Positions 43,035 through 49,682 of a DNA stretch of 64,000 nt are shown here, piece after piece. The notes below the pieces were generated by a model. It had not been told where the DNA came from. It worked only from the letters and a program-made list of their open reading frames with translations, and searched no databases. Position 1 is the stretch's first letter, and the number at the start of each line of letters is the position of its first letter. Position numbers and translations under genes: made by a program. Source of the stretch: Cyclobacteriaceae bacterium (GTDB taxonomy: Bacteria; Bacteroidota; Bacteroidia; Cytophagales; Cyclobacteriaceae); NCBI GenBank assembly GCA_040222275.1, contig JAVKDJ010000013.1:176504-240503 (forward strand), in the 5' to 3' direction.

Positions 43035-43113
43035 TAATTTGCGAACTCACTGAAAATGCAACCGACCTATGGGACCCTGATGGTGCGCGTTTAGCCTTTT
43101 CGGCGTAACGCGT
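43035..43113 (+). repeat. Rearranged fragment of the 256-bp array linker, ending in the 40-bp hairpin
   Basis: 43035-43075 matches 49008-49048 at 34/41; 43074-43113 is identical to 45793-45832. Confidence 0.9.
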
Positions 43114-44527
43114 TACACAAGAGACAAACCGAGCAACTGTTCAACACGACCTTCAACGGCAGCAAAGTGAGCCTGCTCAATGGAGGCTCGACCGTAATAG
43201 GCCCGGCCACTTCCCTGGAGGTAAAAGAAGGGGACAAGCTAAAGCTGGATGCCAATTTATTTTTCGTAGAAGACAACAACGATGGCGTATTTCCCGGTCT
43301 AATGGCCTTTTTGGCGAGTAGCTTTGGGGTATCCAACGGTGCAGGTAGTGAGACGGCCCATATCTACGAGGGGTTGGAAAATGCCTCCAACCTGCTGGTG
43401 CTCTCGCTTACCAATTCGCCCAATGCACCCCGGGCCTACCTGATGTGCATGGTCTTTGATCAAGACTATGTGCTGATAGACCCGGGGGGTACGACTTCTA
43501 TACCGCCGTACCGGAAGCTGCCGCCACAGAAACCCAAAATATATCCCTGGAGATAGACATTCCCGAAAACGCAAAGTATATTTACACCTATGTGGCCAAC
43601 GAAAGTGCTGGCACCCATGTGTTCTTTGACGATTTTACCGTAAAGCAGCTAGGCGTGGACATCACCCAGACCACAGACTACTATCCTTTTGGGAGTATCA
43701 TGAGCCATTGGCAGAAAGAAAACTATAGGTTTGGTTATCAGGGAGAGTTTGCAGAAGAGGATGACGAAACCGGCTTTAACCATTTTGCCCTAAGGTTGTA
43801 TGATAGCAAAATATTAAGGTGGAACTCAATAGACCCTTATAGACAGTATGCTTCTCCATACATTGGTATGGGAAATAATCCAGTTTATCTGACTGATCCT
43901 GATGGTGGTTGTACCGATGCTGACGGAAAAAAAGTTCCTTGTGGTGGTGATACTTTCTATACTATTGAGTCGTCATATCTTGATGATGTTACTATAACGG
44001 CTTCAAGATCTATTTTACCCAGAGATGTTCCTAGCTGGATGAAAACTAGGCATAATGTTGAATTTGAGTTTGATGTTTATGCAAAAATAGTTGCTGGTGA
44101 TATAAATTATGAAGATTATGGGCCTTTAGGCGTATCGATGGATAGATTGAGCGCAGATGTTATCAAAATTGGTTTTAGTCATACCTTTAAAGATGGAAAA
44201 GGAACTCTTTTAGAGAATGGTGGATACTATGACTATTTTGGTAAAAACAATAAATGGACTCTTAATCATGGGGGTTCTGCTGAGTTGGGGATAGACGGGA
44301 AATATAAAGGTAGTGTTACTTATGACTCAAGTAATGGGTCTTTTTATATTTCCAAATTGGAAGCAGGTTTGGGTGCACCTTTCGTTGAGCTTAAGACGAT
44401 TCGAGATCATTCAAGTCATCACACTATAAGATTAGGAGTACAAGAGGAGTGGGGAAAAAATATTTTACCCGGTGTAGCTTGGAAAGCAGGGGGATTTATG
44501 GGGTTTCATTATGTTATTACTAAATAA
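43114..44527 (+). pseudogene. 5'-truncated, frameshifted RHS core + C-terminal toxin tip 1 (intact part 43592..44527)
   Basis: DYYPFG, YRFGYQGE, RWNSIDPY, MGNNPVYLTDPDGG; 7-nt deletion near 43484 relative to the second copy. Confidence 0.88.
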
Positions 44528-44538
44528 AGGAGGGCAGA

Positions 44539-44919
44539 ATGGAATCTATAAGTTTGACGCTAATAATTGTATTATTTGTTATAATATTAATTAATGTTAC
44601 CACGTATCAAAGGTTTAAAAATATTTATATACAACAGCTTAGTTTTTTGAACCGAAAATTGTCTACTCTTGAGAATGTTGAGCGATATGCACTTGTTAAA
44701 AAATTTGATGTTGATGTTGAAGTTGATACCAAATCACTACCAAATGTGAACGGGAAATTTTTGATAAATCGCTCTTATAGTAACCTTGTAAAAGAATATA
44801 AAGAAAGGGTCAAATATTTTAATTTAATTAATAGAATTTTAATTTCCATAATATTACTGCTAACAGTGATACTAATGTTTTTTTATCCAGATTTTCTCAA
44901 AGGTATTTTCGAACACTAA
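44539..44919 (+). CDS. Putative immunity protein 1 (two TM helices)
   Basis: AT-rich, starts 12 nt after toxin tip 1; hydrophobic N- and C-terminal helices. Confidence 0.65.
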   Translation: MESISLTLIIVLFVIILINVTTYQRFKNIYIQQLSFLNRKLSTLENVERYALVKKFDVDVEVDTKSLPNVNGKFLINRSYSNLVKEYKERVKYFNLINRILISIILLLTVILMFFYPDFLKGIFEH

Positions 44920-44927
44920 CTTCAATA

Positions 44928-45398
44928 TTGGCCAACGCGGATATGGCTAGCTTCGGCCTAGCTTCTAGATTTAAGGTGGGAGCAGAACTAGCAGAAACAA
45001 CTACAAATCTTGTTTATCATTCGACTACTAGACCAGGTGTAGCAGATGATATATTAAGGAATGGTATTGATCCAAACTTTTTTAATTCTGCTTCAAGATT
45101 TGGTAAGGGATTTTACGTAGGAAACAGTCCTTCCACGACTATTGCTGAGTTAGGATATCATGGCTATTCAAGAGTTAATACCATTCGATATACTTTGGAG
45201 AATGCTAAGCTTTTTAATGCTACTGGCCGTATACGTATATGGGATATAGGAGTAAAATATACCCCAAGATTATTAGGTAAAGGTGCAAGACTATTTAATT
45301 ACGATGGTATAATTTTTAATTCTTTAAGGTCTAGTGGTACAAACACAGTTTTATTCAAGAATTTTGGAACTCTAAGAAATGGCACAAAGATTTTCTAA
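44928..45398 (+). CDS. Orphan ADP-ribosyltransferase-fold toxin tip (RES/PARP-like)
   Basis: VYHST, SRFGKGFY, TIAEL, YDGIIFNSLRSSGTNTVLF; no RHS core, TTG start only. Confidence 0.65.
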   Translation: MANADMASFGLASRFKVGAELAETTTNLVYHSTTRPGVADDILRNGIDPNFFNSASRFGKGFYVGNSPSTTIAELGYHGYSRVNTIRYTLENAKLFNATGRIRIWDIGVKYTPRLLGKGARLFNYDGIIFNSLRSSGTNTVLFKNFGTLRNGTKIF

Positions 45399-45765
45399 CT
45401 ATCCGAAATTTAAACTGATCAAGAAAAGTTTAAATTTAAAGGCTATTCCCTATGTAAGCCTTAATACTAATGGGGGAAGAAAAATCAAAGTAGAATTGCC
45501 AGATTCTGCATATGGTGAGTGGATAATATATCAAAAAAATGAACCGAAATTTTACTTTTGTGCATTTAAGGAAAATGGGGAAGTAAACAGAATCGCTTCT
45601 TATGCTAGAGAAAAAAAAATGGACATGGAATGTTTTTTGGTTGAATTATTGAGAACTCGTGAATACACAGATTTGGCTACAAAATTTACCGGAACATTGT
45701 CTATTCCATTAAGGCAAAAATCCTCTATGCAAGAATTTGAATTAATGCAAATAGTAGATTCATGA
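45379..45765 (+). CDS. Putative cytoplasmic immunity protein 2
   Basis: Overlaps the toxin stop by 20 nt, AT-rich, soluble 128 aa. Confidence 0.6.
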   Translation: MAQRFSNYPKFKLIKKSLNLKAIPYVSLNTNGGRKIKVELPDSAYGEWIIYQKNEPKFYFCAFKENGEVNRIASYAREKKMDMECFLVELLRTREYTDLATKFTGTLSIPLRQKSSMQEFELMQIVDS

Positions 45766-45792
45766 TCCTCGTTATCCAATGTAGCTGACACC

Positions 45793-47793: not shown

Positions 47794-47825
47794 GCTAGTT
47801 CGAGCCTGCGGCTTGCACTTTATGC

Positions 47826-48188
47826 CCCGTTATTTTAGTGTTGCGTAGCACACTTGAAATTTTGTGATGACATGTAGTGTCTGTGACACACGGTGTAAAA
47901 AGAAGCCCGGTCTTAGCGTCTCGCTGGGGGCCATAAACGAGGAATAAAGCAAGGTGTAAAAGTCCAACAATAAAGGCATTCAGTTTTGGCAACATCACAA
48001 TCACCCAATAGAGCTGTTTGCTAATGAAACAATACTGCATCGAATTGATTATATTGTGAGCAATCCGCTTGGGACCTCATTTGTAGCCGCCACTCCAAAA
48101 GATGTATGAGTGATGCCGTGTCACAGACACTGGTTTTCACGGTAGGTTTTAAGTGGTCTTTCAGAACACTTAAAACAACGGGTTAGGC
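47826..48188. other. Long imperfect inverted-repeat element (~360 bp); attC-like or structured RNA
   Basis: 47826-47842 pairs with 48165-48182; perfect 14-bp pair 47876-47889 / 48118-48131; ends in GTTAGGC. Confidence 0.6.
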
Positions 48189-48256
48189 AACAAATAAGTT
48201 TCTCCAAAAAAACTGTATCAATTGTAGAATCGTTAACTTTGAAAAAAGCATCGATT

Positions 48257-48487
48257 ATGACAACAGTTGACATAAGGGAAGAAATTCATCAATATATCGA
48301 TAGGGCAGATGATCGGATATTACAATTGATTTATGGTATGATACAAGCCGATTTGTCTGAAGACGGTTATGAACTGAGCGACGCGCACAAGAAGGTTTTG
48401 GATGAAAGGTTGTCAGATCACAAATCAAACCCTACGTCAGGTTCTAGCTGGGAAAAGACGAAAGCGAAGATATCTCGTCAATTATGA
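48257..48487 (+). CDS. Addiction-module antitoxin component
   Basis: LSDAHKKVLDERL...GSSWEKTKAK typical of TIGR02574-like antitoxins; overlaps the toxin start. Confidence 0.8.
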   Translation: MTTVDIREEIHQYIDRADDRILQLIYGMIQADLSEDGYELSDAHKKVLDERLSDHKSNPTSGSSWEKTKAKISRQL

Positions 48488-48780
48488 ATTATGAAGTTGT
48501 CATCAAAGCTGCTGCAGAGCTTGATGTTACAGAAATTGTTTCATGGTACGAATCAAAAAAACAGGGTTTGGGTTTACGTTTTTTAGAGGCAATAGATGTT
48601 AAAATTAAGCTCCTTGAGCAGAACCCTCATATTTATAGAGTTAGATACAAAGAAATAAGATTTGTTCTTGTGAGGCGGTTTCCCTATTGTATCCATTTTA
48701 CCCTTGAAAACCAGAAAGTTTACATACATGCTGTTTTGAGTACCTATAGAAACCCGAAGTTATGGACGGAACGAAGTTAA
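48484..48780 (+). CDS. ParE/RelE-family type II toxin
   Basis: AAELDVTEIVSWYE..GLGLRF, RRFPYCIHF, VYIHAVL. Confidence 0.85.
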   Translation: MNYEVVIKAAAELDVTEIVSWYESKKQGLGLRFLEAIDVKIKLLEQNPHIYRVRYKEIRFVLVRRFPYCIHFTLENQKVYIHAVLSTYRNPKLWTERS

Positions 48781-48783
48781 CGA

Positions 48784-49682
48784 CTATGGGACTTCTCGCT
48801 CGTGCCTCACATCGAAGTGACGTACGTGAATGTACTGGCTGGTAGCCCCCAAACGGTTGAAACATTGCTTGTAGAGGGGTGGTAGGTTTTCGCAGCAGAT
48901 TTTGTAACACCCGTCACTTCGACCGTAGGAGAAGTCCCCTTGGTTAAAGCATTTATTCAATATATATCCTCCGATGGTGCTCATTTAGCCTTTTTCGGCG
49001 TAATGCGTAATTTGCGAACCCATTGCAAATGCTCCCAATCTATGGGACTTCCCGCTCGTGCCTCACATCGAAGTGACGTGCGTGAATGTACTGGCTGGTA
49101 GCCTCCAAACGGTTGAAATATTGTTTGTAGAGAGATGGCAGGTTTTTACAACAGATTTTGTAACACCCGTCACTTCGACCGTAGGGAGAAGTCCCTTTGG
49201 TTAAAGCACTGATTCAAAATATATCCTTCGATGGTGCTCATTTAGCCTTTTTCGGCGTAATGCGTAATTTTCGAACCCATTGCAAATGAGCCCGACCCAT
49301 GGGACTTCTCGCTCGTGCCTCACATCGAAGTGACGTGCGTGAATGTCTGGCTGGCAGCCTCCAAACGGTTGAAACATTGTGTGTAGAGAGATGGCAGGTT
49401 TTCTCAACAGATTTTGTAATACCCGTCACTTCGACCGTAGGGAGAAGTCCCTTTGGTTAAAGCACTTATTCAAGATATATCCTCCGATGTTGCTCATTTA
49501 GCCTTTTTCGGCGTAACGCGTAATTTACAAACCCATTGCAAATGCGCCCGATCCCTGGGACTTCCCGCTAGTGCCTCACATCAAAGTGACGTACGTGAAT
49601 GTACTGGCTGGTAGCCCCCAAACGGTTGAAACATTGCTTGTAGAGATGGCATGTTTTCTCAACAGATTTTGTAATACCCGTC
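48784..49682. repeat. Tandem array of ~3.5 x 256-257-bp units, each an inverted REP-like pair plus conserved linkers (BIME-like)
   Basis: Units start at 48784, 49040, 49297, 49553; arms gggacttctc..cgaagtgacg and cgtcacttcg..gagaagtccc are reverse complements. Confidence 0.92.

Follow-up and report, generated by a model that had tools for sequence, protein, structure and literature searches.

Gene content of the RHS locus

Within the window, that is, the whole 64,000-nucleotide stretch of Cyclobacteriaceae DNA analyzed here, we found a 6.6-kb locus containing two RHS remnants with toxin tips, putative immunity genes, repeat elements, and a type II toxin-antitoxin pair (Table 1). Both remnants matched the RHS-associated core domain TIGR03696 with 50-55 bits (cut-off 32.5) and differed by a 7-nt indel. 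Remnant 1 carried a frameshift near 43485 and a DPDGG motif at approximately 43895-43909, followed by toxin tip 1, and from 43117 on it shared 86.6% nucleotide identity with the main RHS gene of L059 (2909 aa; L059:3989-4758). The starts of the two remnants lay about 175 nt apart along the RHS gene, and the extra 5' sequence of remnant 1 was true RHS sequence that aligned with full-length relatives. No full-length RHS gene was found in the present genome, and the sister species had no matching one. The genome contained three RHS fragments in total, two of which adjoined copies of the hairpin H described below; the third, an orphan on contig C29, had no hairpin.

Immunity gene 1 was almost unchanged in related strains, and the RES-like tip pair that follows it had no hairpin of its own. 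At the left edge of the locus, the array-unit stub shared 72-80% identity with the linkers at 49003, 49260, and 49516, and in related strains its flank continued into an intact arm A. The ends of the miniature element (MITE) were 90-91% identical to those of an intact RAYT element (C72:8102-8901), and its interior was homologous to residues 117-156 of RAYT (tblastn E = 1.6e-6); an interpretation of 47817-48184 as a stem was rejected in favor of this RAYT-derived element. The block of MITE and toxin-antitoxin genes had a 90% identical counterpart in L059, which contained three MITE copies (91% identity), two of them lying flush on either side of an RHS fragment.

Each unit of the tandem array consisted of REP arm A, an inverted arm B, a diverged copy of H, and a K-type REP linker. 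The same arms formed arrays at C72:42100-43900 (207-bp period) and C13:99900-100900, and the array is a BIME-like mosaic of REPs. The RAYT derivatives at the locus would comprise the 40-nt end hairpin H, the 365-bp MITE, and this array.

Table 1. Features of the RHS locus (positions in the window).
Feature	Position	Strand	Remarks
Array-unit stub: K-type linker and first bases of REP arm A	43030..43075	+	Arm A-arm B interior missing
H1, RAYT-element hairpin (REP)	43074..43113	+	5' tail CCCTGATGG, then bulged stem-loop
RHS remnant 1 and toxin tip 1	43114..44527	+	Core starts at H1 foot; TIGR03696 match
Putative immunity gene 1, small membrane protein	44539..44919	+	ORF position; no Pfam match
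Toxin tip without RHS core and overlapping small ORF	44928..45765	+	Weak RES match, 21.3 bits, below cut-off
16-nt RHS relic CCAATGTAGCTGACAC	45776..45791	+	Left flank of H insertion site; exact match to L059:3977-3992
H2 and element tail GATTTCTAC	45793..45841	+	H2 at 45793-45832, identical to H1
RHS remnant 2 and toxin tip 2	45842..47087	+	Intact 418-aa frame from GTG 45831; TIGR03696 at residues 136-211
Putative immunity gene 2	47104..47793	+	ORF position; no Pfam match
365-bp non-autonomous RAYT element (MITE)	47817..48184	+	R1+R2 as left end, a decayed RAYT inside, right end inverted
Type II toxin-antitoxin pair (Unstab_antitox and ParE)	48239..48780	+	
BIME-like tandem array, 256-bp period	48786..49683	+	3.5 copies, 91% matches

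Hairpin H and its relation to RAYT elements

The 40-mer ACCCTGATGGTGCGCGTTTAGCCTTTTCGGCGTAACGCGT, referred to here as hairpin H, occurred in two identical copies in the same orientation, H1 and H2, 2719 bp apart. The RHS sequences 3' of the two hairpins were only 88-91% identical (43292-43783 vs 45842-46340); given this divergence, 40 identical bases would be expected with a chance of about 0.9^40 = 0.015. An initial annotation had placed this identical hairpin before both remnants despite their different starting points in the RHS gene, which was confirmed. Its statement that the remnants are flush with the hairpin held for remnant 1 (0-3 nt), but not for remnant 2, in which RHS homology begins 9-11 nt past the hairpin, behind the tail GATTTCTAC; in related strains, this tail also follows H in other contexts. 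Diverged copies in the array linkers were likewise verified, at 48968-49008, 49225-49265, and 49481-49521.

The minimum-energy DNA fold of H (-10 kcal/mol, z = -2.7) contained a 2x2 internal loop in place of the two staggered single extrahelical bases initially proposed, and the array copies folded poorly (-3.4 kcal/mol, z = -0.3). A compensatory change from G-C to A-T in array copies 1-2, noted previously, is real, and a second pair was altered on both sides in another copy, with covariation in the stem thin overall (3 cells). The hairpin family had 8-9 copies in the 7-Mb genome, in which a reversed-sequence control gave 0 copies. Examination of their flanks, as the initial annotation had proposed, placed five copies in the 6.6-kb locus, two of them at RHS sequences, but 4 of 9 lay in ordinary intergenic sites.

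RAYTs are class 2 Y1 HUH enzymes, of which subclasses 2.6 and 2.4 are frequent among Bacteroidetes (Quentin et al. 2018, PMC6006769; Di Nocera et al. 2013, PMC3733652). In the metagenome contigs L038, L041, and L042, H was located 56-71 nt upstream of the start codons of RAYT genes whose products matched NF047646 with 102-109 bits (cut-off 80); the IS200 model remained below its cut-off for these enzymes (26 bits vs 55). In L042 and L043, the H left end was joined to variable points within its own RAYT gene. As judged from these neighbors, H is the REP-type end hairpin of a RAYT (Y1 HUH) element, and the earlier derivation of the 40-mer from a REP/BIME-like array agrees with this assignment. 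The search for a RAYT beside the same REP succeeded in the metagenome contigs, but in the present genome no copy of H adjoined an intact cognate RAYT. The present genome does carry intact RAYT genes that retain the HUH and Tyr motifs.

A single insertion site divided between two hairpins

The 16-nt relic to the left of H2 was unique in the genome. In intact RHS genes (L059, runs X3 and X4), the relic and the start of remnant 1 are contiguous, with a 4-nt overlap between the relic (L059:3977-3992) and the start of remnant 1 (L059:3989). In remnant 2, L059 homology starts again at 4164, and 171 nt of RHS sequence are thus missing after the relic. Because the relic to the left of H2 precedes the start of remnant 1 in intact genes, H entered one RHS site, and the right flank of H1 and the left flank of H2 are the halves of that site. 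The alignments therefore indicate that H sits in one site of the RHS 3' region, with flanks split between H1 and H2, and that the 2.7-kb H1-to-H2 module, consisting of two toxin-immunity pairs, has one half of that insertion site at each end.

Variation at the hairpin in related strains

Evidence from related strains came from short Logan unitigs of four runs (X1-X4), possibly representing several strains, at >=90% likeness. A contig of X2 contained the flank 43007-43046, approximately 505 nt of further sequence, and an array-type H with GACTTCTACTC, followed directly by RHS position Q. This contig represents a related strain that is without the H1-to-H2 module at the same chromosomal site; its H at the Q junction was of the diverged array type, unlike the identical H1 and H2. 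In a 552-nt contig of X3, immunity gene 1 was followed by 72 nt and then H, and the RES pair was absent. The junction of H with RHS position P was common to contigs in X1-X4, which diverged after 43171. The junction between the RHS relic and H2 had zero depth in all four runs, and thus the filled state is known from the present assembly only. The expectation of the initial annotation that cassette modules would be present or absent among relatives with breakpoints at the hairpin was borne out.

RAYT elements and RHS cassettes in other species and genera

At least four orphan cassettes of the sister species G002 were joined to the left end of the R1/R2 RAYT element together with its leader, and the array of cassettes terminated in an intact RAYT. 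Four left-end copies in G010 headed two orphans and the RAYT. In all, orphan RHS cassettes that begin with the left ends of other RAYT elements were found in two more genera. For one RHS family, at least five independent junctions with RAYT-element ends were found in three species. In a family-wide count, 9 of 150 RAYT hits had an RHS core no more than 5 kb away (expected 0.69; 13-fold; Poisson P = 5e-8), all nine on the same strand as the RHS gene and seven with the RAYT downstream. Additionally, an association of RAYT genes and their end hairpins with RHS orphans was seen in other genera, and a RAYT-derived element (47817-48184) lies inside the present locus. These comparisons support the view that such hairpins are where Rhs cassettes break, insert, and get lost across related strains and genera.

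Possible mechanisms of cassette rearrangement

With confidence a little above even, we regard the locus as a decayed Rhs toxin island colonized by non-autonomous RAYT derivatives, in which recombination between H copies shuffles cassettes. In the order of events that we infer, a RAYT element would have inserted, and recombination between H copies would afterwards have shifted, inserted, or deleted entire cassette modules, most likely through host homologous recombination and microhomology or slippage events beside the hairpin. The same recombination may have taken away approximately 8 kb at the 5' end of the parent RHS gene, so that orphans headed by hairpins remained, and the role of RAYT would be to spread the repeats. 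If so, the repeats would be portable sites for recombination that give toxin-immunity units their modularity. Since H1 and H2 are 100% identical and the H at the Q junction of the related strain is diverged, a reciprocal crossover of unlike copies would be inadequate, and a conversion or replicative step would be needed. The C29 orphan and the H copies in ordinary intergenic sites count against this explanation, as do the left-end-headed cassettes in three genera, which are always in RAYT orientation and more regular than random insertion and RecA would predict. In the literature, we found no description linking RAYT/REP hairpins to Rhs cassette breakpoints.

We consider an active HUH cassette system possible but rather unlikely. 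In such a system, RAYT would nick the single-stranded hairpin foot and join it to other DNA, and hairpin-cassette circles would be excised and integrated beside another hairpin, much as IS26 translocatable units or the cassettes of integrons are, building hairpin-cassette-hairpin-cassette-RAYT arrays. The topology of the H1-to-H2 module, with both target halves and identical terminal H copies, is that of a circle integrated at H, and a relative has the empty site. The left-end-headed, RAYT-oriented, and RAYT-terminated cassettes involve three unrelated hairpins in the three genera, L042/L043 and a tandem RAYT pair on C72 show nested junctions in which the left end stays fixed, and the same-strand neighbors and the intact RAYT genes of the genome also fit. 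However, the junction offsets from the hairpin vary (0-3, 9-11, and about 14 nt), no shared target motif was found at the RHS junction sites, and the junctions lie in 3-4 nt microhomologies (TGAC at P, where relatives have G at 43114, and GCGT at Q) that indicate illegitimate recombination. Moreover, the RAYT copy at the locus is dead and no intact H-type RAYT lies beside H in this genome, runs X1-X4 showed neither a circle nor an excision junction, and RAYTs have been described as acting on REPs rather than cargo (PMC6006769). Of the mechanism proposed initially, the repeat-directed part is supported; for its HUH part, ordinary recombination between repeat copies, illegitimate and homologous, would fit the data equally well.

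It is improbable that the repeats merely accumulated in non-essential intergenic DNA, with their position at RHS starts incidental and without a role in rearrangement. REPs are intergenic by nature, as are other H copies here, the gap 5' of remnant 2 is just about 76 nt, so that any insert would appear to be at the start, and the locus as a whole is a clutter of repeats, a toxin-antitoxin pair, and pseudogenes. Nevertheless, the split target site places H inside former RHS coding sequence rather than in a pre-existing gap, strain differences break at H, and both the independent junctions in three species and the family-wide enrichment, with RAYT and RHS always on the same strand, argue against coincidence. 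A single tandem duplication of hairpin and RHS fragment, after which the second copy suffered a deletion and the two diverged, would account for identical, co-oriented hairpins each followed by an RHS fragment, but it is scarcely credible, in agreement with the initial annotation. It is already contradicted by RHS parts that differ by 9-12% next to hairpins that differ by 0%, by unrelated toxin tips and immunity genes, by the relic left of H2, which belongs upstream of the remnant 1 start and would not arise in this way, and by a related strain that has the Q junction but no module 1.

Comparison with known systems

As in the REPtron or REP-RAYT (TnpA_REP) systems and BIMEs of E. coli and Pseudomonas, the enzymes match the NCBI RAYT model and have NH/SH-LH and YIHxNP motifs, their genes are flanked by short imperfect palindromes with copies dispersed genome-wide, and the REPs form tandem mosaics in alternating orientation. 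A REP inserted within a RAYT gene (L042) resembles what has been reported for subclass 2.4. In contrast to REP-RAYT systems, each family has few copies (9 to 32), the hairpins lie at Rhs cassette breakpoints, and the RAYT genes are multi-copy (8-9) and partly tandem, with miniature derivatives conserved between species, which suggests behavior closer to that of insertion sequences.

Orphan rhs-CT/rhsI modules reportedly form C-terminal displacement arrays in Enterobacteria. The present modules share with them 5'-truncated cores of a few hundred nt, a variable toxin tip with a small 3' gene, and several modules in a row whose content varies by strain. They differ in that no full-length rhs is present as a recombination partner, their 5' ends are joints with transposase-element hairpins rather than plain recombination scars, and some RHS fragments are element-bracketed and toxin-free (L059).

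Precedents for IS-driven deletion of adjacent DNA and for cassette arrays based on repeated copies of an element include IS26 translocatable units, one-ended capture by IS91/ISCR, and PATE/MITE derivatives of IS200/IS605. Common to these systems and the present one are a breakpoint fixed at the element end with the other variable in neighboring DNA, element-X-element-Y arrays, and miniature non-autonomous copies; here, the repeat is just a 40-nt hairpin rather than a whole IS, and the enzyme family is RAYT. Integron attC sites span 57-141 nt. Like attC cassettes, H is a hairpin with bulges that would be recognized in single-stranded form, and the cassettes are promoterless and in one orientation, with toxin-antitoxin modules inside the array. 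Unlike attC, the stem-loop has 29 nt and no R''/L''-L'/R' organization was seen in it, and the associated enzyme is an HUH nuclease, not a tyrosine recombinase. In Neisseria, NIME/dRS3 repeats occur around silent cassettes of pilS and maf. Neither the repeat family nor the enzyme is related to those described here, and gene conversion carries the Neisserial cassettes into an expressed locus, whereas no expressed full-length gene is present here; in both cases, small repeats punctuate silent arrays of variable cassettes and would serve as recombination sites.

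The RHS remnants and the hairpin at their heads

Two 5'-truncated RHS fragments, remnant 1 and remnant 2, are each preceded in the window by an identical 40-nt hairpin unit (H, ACCCTGATGGTGCGCGTTTAGCCTTTTCGGCGTAACGCGT; copies H1 and H2), and this observation of the initial annotation was confirmed. Given the divergence of the downstream RHS fragments, 40 unchanged bases would be expected by chance with a probability of ~0.015. TIGR03696, the RHS-associated core domain, was matched by both remnants at 50-55 bits (cut-off 32.5), and the two were 88-91% identical across ~500 nt, apart from a 7-nt indel that causes a frameshift in remnant 1. 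Their open frames are 5'-truncated, without the YD-repeat shell or the N-terminal domain; the translations show DPDGG and DKNGG motifs, with a DPxG-type core end followed by a variable tip. The small genes downstream, putatively encoding immunity proteins, were recognized by position and size and had no family match.

The remnants begin at different points in the RHS gene, here called P (remnant 1) and Q (remnant 2), as had been proposed: the additional ~175 nt at the 5' end of remnant 1 are true RHS sequence by alignment with full-length relatives, and from 43117 on this remnant has 86.6% nucleotide identity to the 2909-aa RHS gene of a relative (L059/L061). The related claim that RHS sequence starts directly at the hairpin has to be corrected for remnant 2, in which homology starts 9-11 nt past the hairpin, after a tail belonging to the repeat. 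In the source genome (assembly 99% complete), no full-length RHS gene was found, only three core fragments, and there was no match to RHS_repeat (YD-repeat) or DUF6443 and no RHS parent at the nucleotide level. A third RHS orphan, with a 326-aa frame, was identified on contig C29 (4179 bp, reverse-complement 397-1374). The first ~120 nt of this contig recur at its end, so that a circular molecule or a collapsed repeat is possible.

Coordinates of the hairpin copies, RHS remnants and repeat elements in the window
Feature	Position	Description
Stub of array unit	43030-43075	ahead of H1; continues into intact REP arm A in related strains
H1	43074-43113	40-nt hairpin unit ahead of remnant 1
H 5' tail	43076-43085, 45795-45804	CCTGATGGTG
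Remnant 1	43167-43556 and 43592-44527	pseudogene, frames of 129+311 aa, split by frameshift near 43485
RHS relic	45776-45791	16 nt directly left of H2, CCAATGTAGCTGACAC
H2	45793-45832	40-nt hairpin unit ahead of remnant 2
Remnant 2		intact 418-aa frame; start GTG (45831) made of the hairpin's last bases
Miniature RAYT element	47817-48184	365 bp
Tandem array	48786-49683	256 bp x 3.5 units; diverged H in each full unit

A split insertion site and its variation among strains

The relic directly left of H2 was found once in the genome and is identical to L059:3977-3992 inside the intact RHS gene, and remnant 1, to the right of H1, begins at L059:3989, so that the two overlap by 4 nt. Therefore, a single point in an RHS gene is flanked on one side by the sequence now left of H2 and on the other by that now right of H1, and H lies inside former RHS coding sequence. 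Intact RHS genes cross this point uninterrupted in L059 and in the public sequencing runs X3 and X4. Between the relic and the start of remnant 2 (L059:4164), 171 nt of RHS are absent. The 2.7 kb between H1 and H2 contain remnant 1, toxin 1, immunity 1, an RES-like tip and its partner, and the relic; the segment has the topology of one inserted at, or removable through, H.

The comparison of strains for gain or loss of cassettes with breaks at the hairpin, proposed in the initial annotation, gave a positive result in four public runs with close relatives, which are available as short unitigs and may come from several strains. One contig of 782 nt contains the upstream flank 43007-43046, followed by array-like sequence of ~505 nt and an H of the array type with GACTTCTACTC, and then proceeds straight to position Q; it represents the site lacking the module. 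In another contig, H comes 72 nt after immunity gene 1 and the RES pair is absent, and further contigs have the H/RHS(P) junction in common and diverge past 43171 into 26 nt and the miniature RAYT element. Additionally, one related-strain contig has the RHS core end (..YTGMGNN) fused to the 5' end of H. The joint between relic and H2 was not seen in the four runs.

The hairpin as the left end of a RAYT element

In three metagenome contigs (L038, L041, and L042), a gene beginning MSEKYKFRDPEGLYF has H ahead of it, 56-71 nt from the ATG. The element on contig C72 of the source genome and the H-linked gene of L041 scored 108.9 and 102.1 bits, respectively, against NF047646, the NCBI model for REP-associated tyrosine transposases (RAYTs; cut-off 80). 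Scores against the IS200 model NF033573 were 26.1 and 20.4 bits, under the cut-off of 55. PF01797 also matched the RAYT genes, and the HUH (HLH) and YIHxNP motifs are visible in their sequences. Because H lies just upstream of a gene that matches the RAYT model and not the IS200 model, we identify H as the left-end hairpin of a RAYT element. The source genome has 8-9 RAYT genes, including a tandem pair on C72, and some contig ends fall within an element. In this genome, H is near a RAYT gene only at C72:8997, downstream of another subfamily, and the RAYT nearest in sequence to the H-linked genes (C72:93521-93991) has K-type REPs rather than H on its flanks.

The stem-loop of H occupies 29 nt of the 40-nt unit. 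As DNA, it folds at -10 kcal/mol (z = -2.7), and the best fold has a 2x2 internal loop; the fold with two bulges described earlier is retained as one possible reading, and the compensatory change from G-C to A-T in array copies 1-2 is real. In the alignment of H, 94.9% of cells were paired and 2 pairs had changed on both sides; covariation was thin overall, and the array copies folded poorly. Eight to nine copies were found on 4 contigs of the source genome, against 0 for the reversed control. No copy of H was found in 60 further genomes from the family, one of them the sister species, or in a pattern search of 185,000 species genomes, the latter result holding for the pattern used. The metagenome scan, in which six contigs carry H, was the only search of other DNA with matches.

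Four of the nine copies lie at ordinary sites: one separates an ECF sigma gene from a FecR gene, and two stand on either side of a GRAM-domain ORF. At C99:236583-237428 (L037), two direct copies bracket a small GRAM-domain membrane ORF beside a subtilase gene, with REP arm B after the second copy. An Rfam search of the whole window matched no family, and a search for a target motif shared by the sequences left of the H copies or by the RHS junctions showed none. The 5' tail of H is identical to the codons of the conserved DPDGG motif that ends the RHS core of remnant 1 (43898-43907); this 10-nt identity, with an estimated chance of ~0.05, could provide H with homology at the point of toxin swapping.

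The region first read as a long stem (47817-48184) is a non-autonomous RAYT element: both ends are 90-91% identical to those of the intact, tandemly duplicated C72 element, and the interior retains residual homology to RAYT residues 117-156. Miniature RAYT copies are 91% identical between species. As had been noted earlier, each full unit of the 256-bp array holds one diverged copy of H. The unit is a mosaic in which H is combined with two inverted REPs, arms A and B, and with a REP of the K type; the latter forms clusters around other RAYT genes of the source genome. Arms A and B make 207-bp and ~300-bp arrays elsewhere in this genome. BIME-like arrays built from these two arms were located at C72:42100-43900 (207-bp period, at least 8 units) and C13:99900-100900 (period about 210/300 bp).

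Fusions within RAYT genes were also observed. In one metagenome, H with a 14-nt tail is fused into its own RAYT gene (L042, reverse complement, 6283-6900; L043, 3700-3870) at two separate positions within the 3' part, and a second H interrupts the RAYT gene of L042. In the tandem pair at C72:7390-8900, the 3' end of the first RAYT gene is cut exactly where the next left end begins, a layout of left end and then truncated partner as in the RHS cassettes.

Recurrence in other genera

The sister species (G002, Reichenbachiella sp. MALMAid0571) has at least four orphan cassettes of the same RHS family, all of which begin with the left end of the other RAYT element, the R1/R2 type. This left end, consisting of an R1 hairpin, R2, and a leader that contains an ATG, joins RHS ~30 nt before the would-be RAYT start codon, and the last member of the cassette array is an intact RAYT that has its right end. 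The two full-length RHS genes in this genome are unrelated at the nucleotide level to its hairpin-headed orphans; behind one of them, a 60-nt YD fragment is bracketed by two leader elements. L059 contains a 640-nt RHS fragment with two copies of the miniature element, one flush on each side, followed by the same miniature element and TA block as in the window. G010 belongs to another genus; there, a different left-end hairpin element is present four times at intervals of ~1.8 kb, its copies heading two RHS orphans and the RAYT, and the YD sequence of one orphan begins flush at the element end.

Among the matches listed in both searches over 61 genomes, at least 9 of 150 RAYT matches, these nine being from nine genera, lay <5 kb from an RHS core, a lower bound, with 0.69 neighbours expected (Poisson P = 5e-8). 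Of these listed neighbours, 9/9 were on the same strand and 7/9 were downstream. The immediate flanks were not syntenic among the window, G002, and L059, and thus the assembled genomes offer no clean orthologous empty site.

A terminator-like hairpin (AATCCCAATCA..TGATTGGGATTTTTT), located in L056 (G002 C142, reverse-complement 12646-12960 and 10340-10380) and L040 (6030-6130), accompanies the leader elements and also stands ahead of a 572-aa RHS orphan; in L040 it comes after H, and a conserved ~60-nt stretch is next in both organisms. In another genus, L064 (G022 C140, 80-1460 and 5086-5540) has an RHS orphan between a 114-bp tandem REP array and a RAYT gene ringed by ~7 REP hairpins, an overall layout as in the window. 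At C82:93690-95070 of the source genome, a single gene, which we take to encode a pentapeptide-repeat-like protein, lies between two direct copies of a ~210-bp miniature R1/R2 RAYT element, a second cassette-like arrangement unrelated to toxins.

Proposed mechanism and alternatives

The firm ground of this analysis consists of the identification of H as part of a RAYT element, the splitting of the target site, the polymorphism among strains, and the recurrence in other genera. H, probably within a BIME-type unit, would have entered the 3' region of an RHS gene. Recombination between H copies would then insert or delete modules and also strip the parent gene of its 5' 8 kb, and a hairpin-adjacent deletion would have created the Q junction. 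We lean towards host recombination and slippage as the agents, because the offsets of the junctions from the stem vary, because microhomologies of 3-4 nt are present at the joints (TGAC at P, which presumes a G at 43114 as in relatives, and GCGT at Q), and because there is no cognate intact RAYT beside H in the source genome.

Set against these points, rearrangement of the cassettes by an active HUH enzyme is a tentative possibility, consistent with a module topology resembling a circle, with H1 and H2 being perfectly identical although the relative has a different subtype of H at Q, with the regular succession of left end, cassette, and RAYT in three genera, and with the strict same-strand rule. 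Its broadest form, in which RAYT and end hairpins would constitute an ssDNA cassette-exchange system for Rhs toxin-immunity modules in many Bacteroidota, with the hairpin as the attachment site for the integration and excision of cassette circles behind an rhs gene and the whole as an HUH-based counterpart of integrons, we consider unlikely.

A special role for H is opposed by the C29 orphan, which has no hairpin upstream, by the core-less RES-like tip, also without one, and by the copies in ordinary places; moreover, simple scans called H neither terminator-like nor sigma-70 promoter-like, and these functions were rejected. A purely passive co-occurrence of repeats and RHS orphans fits the results poorly and is improbable. 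A single duplication as the origin of both modules also fits poorly, has very little probability, and was rejected.

The locus bears on two questions. The acquisition, storage, and swapping of tips by Rhs and other polymorphic toxins are partly understood, with homologous recombination within the core as the accepted picture, and the benefit of REP/RAYT systems to the host is a long-standing question. The locus links toxin-tip turnover to the role of REP/RAYT through RAYT hairpins at exact cassette breakpoints, a hairpin-bounded module that one strain has and another lacks, and a RAYT-RHS association at the level of a bacterial family. Should the repeats contribute nothing beyond portable homology, this would be a clear case of REP-type elements that render an accessory locus modular and destroy its parent gene; should cassettes be moved by the enzyme itself, it would be a new class of gene-cassette system. 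These results should concern researchers of polymorphic toxins as well as of REP/RAYT. A literature search for a link of RAYT or REP to Rhs cassette junctions found co-mentions only.

Comparison with known systems

The integron/attC reading was rejected on hairpin size and form: attC sites, which belong with a nearby integron integrase, are 57-141 nt long with paired R and L boxes, well beyond the stem-loop of H. The scores with NF033573 likewise place the enzymes outside the IS200-type transposases of the IS200/IS605 group. The modules match orphan rhs-CT/rhsI modules in domain, truncation, and layout; the full-length rhs gene with matching core that stands upstream in those systems is absent here but present in L059/L061.

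Enzymes and repeats alike fall among the REP/RAYT systems, and the hairpin is a short imperfect palindrome with dispersed extragenic copies, although its copy number is low for a REP. Whereas the RAYT of those systems is a single-copy, immobile host gene, 8-9 copies, a tandem pair, and miniature derivatives are present here; being multi-copy, miniaturized, and conserved between species, the RAYT elements resemble insertion sequences. The array matches a BIME as a tandem mosaic of REPs in alternating orientation with linkers, but its unit is far longer than that of E. coli. By motifs, the closest-looking RAYTs are the Bacteroidetes subclasses 2.6 and 2.4 (Quentin et al., PMC6006769). REPs inserted into the RAYT gene have been reported for subclass 2.4 (Quentin et al., PMC6006769), and L042 shows a similar arrangement.
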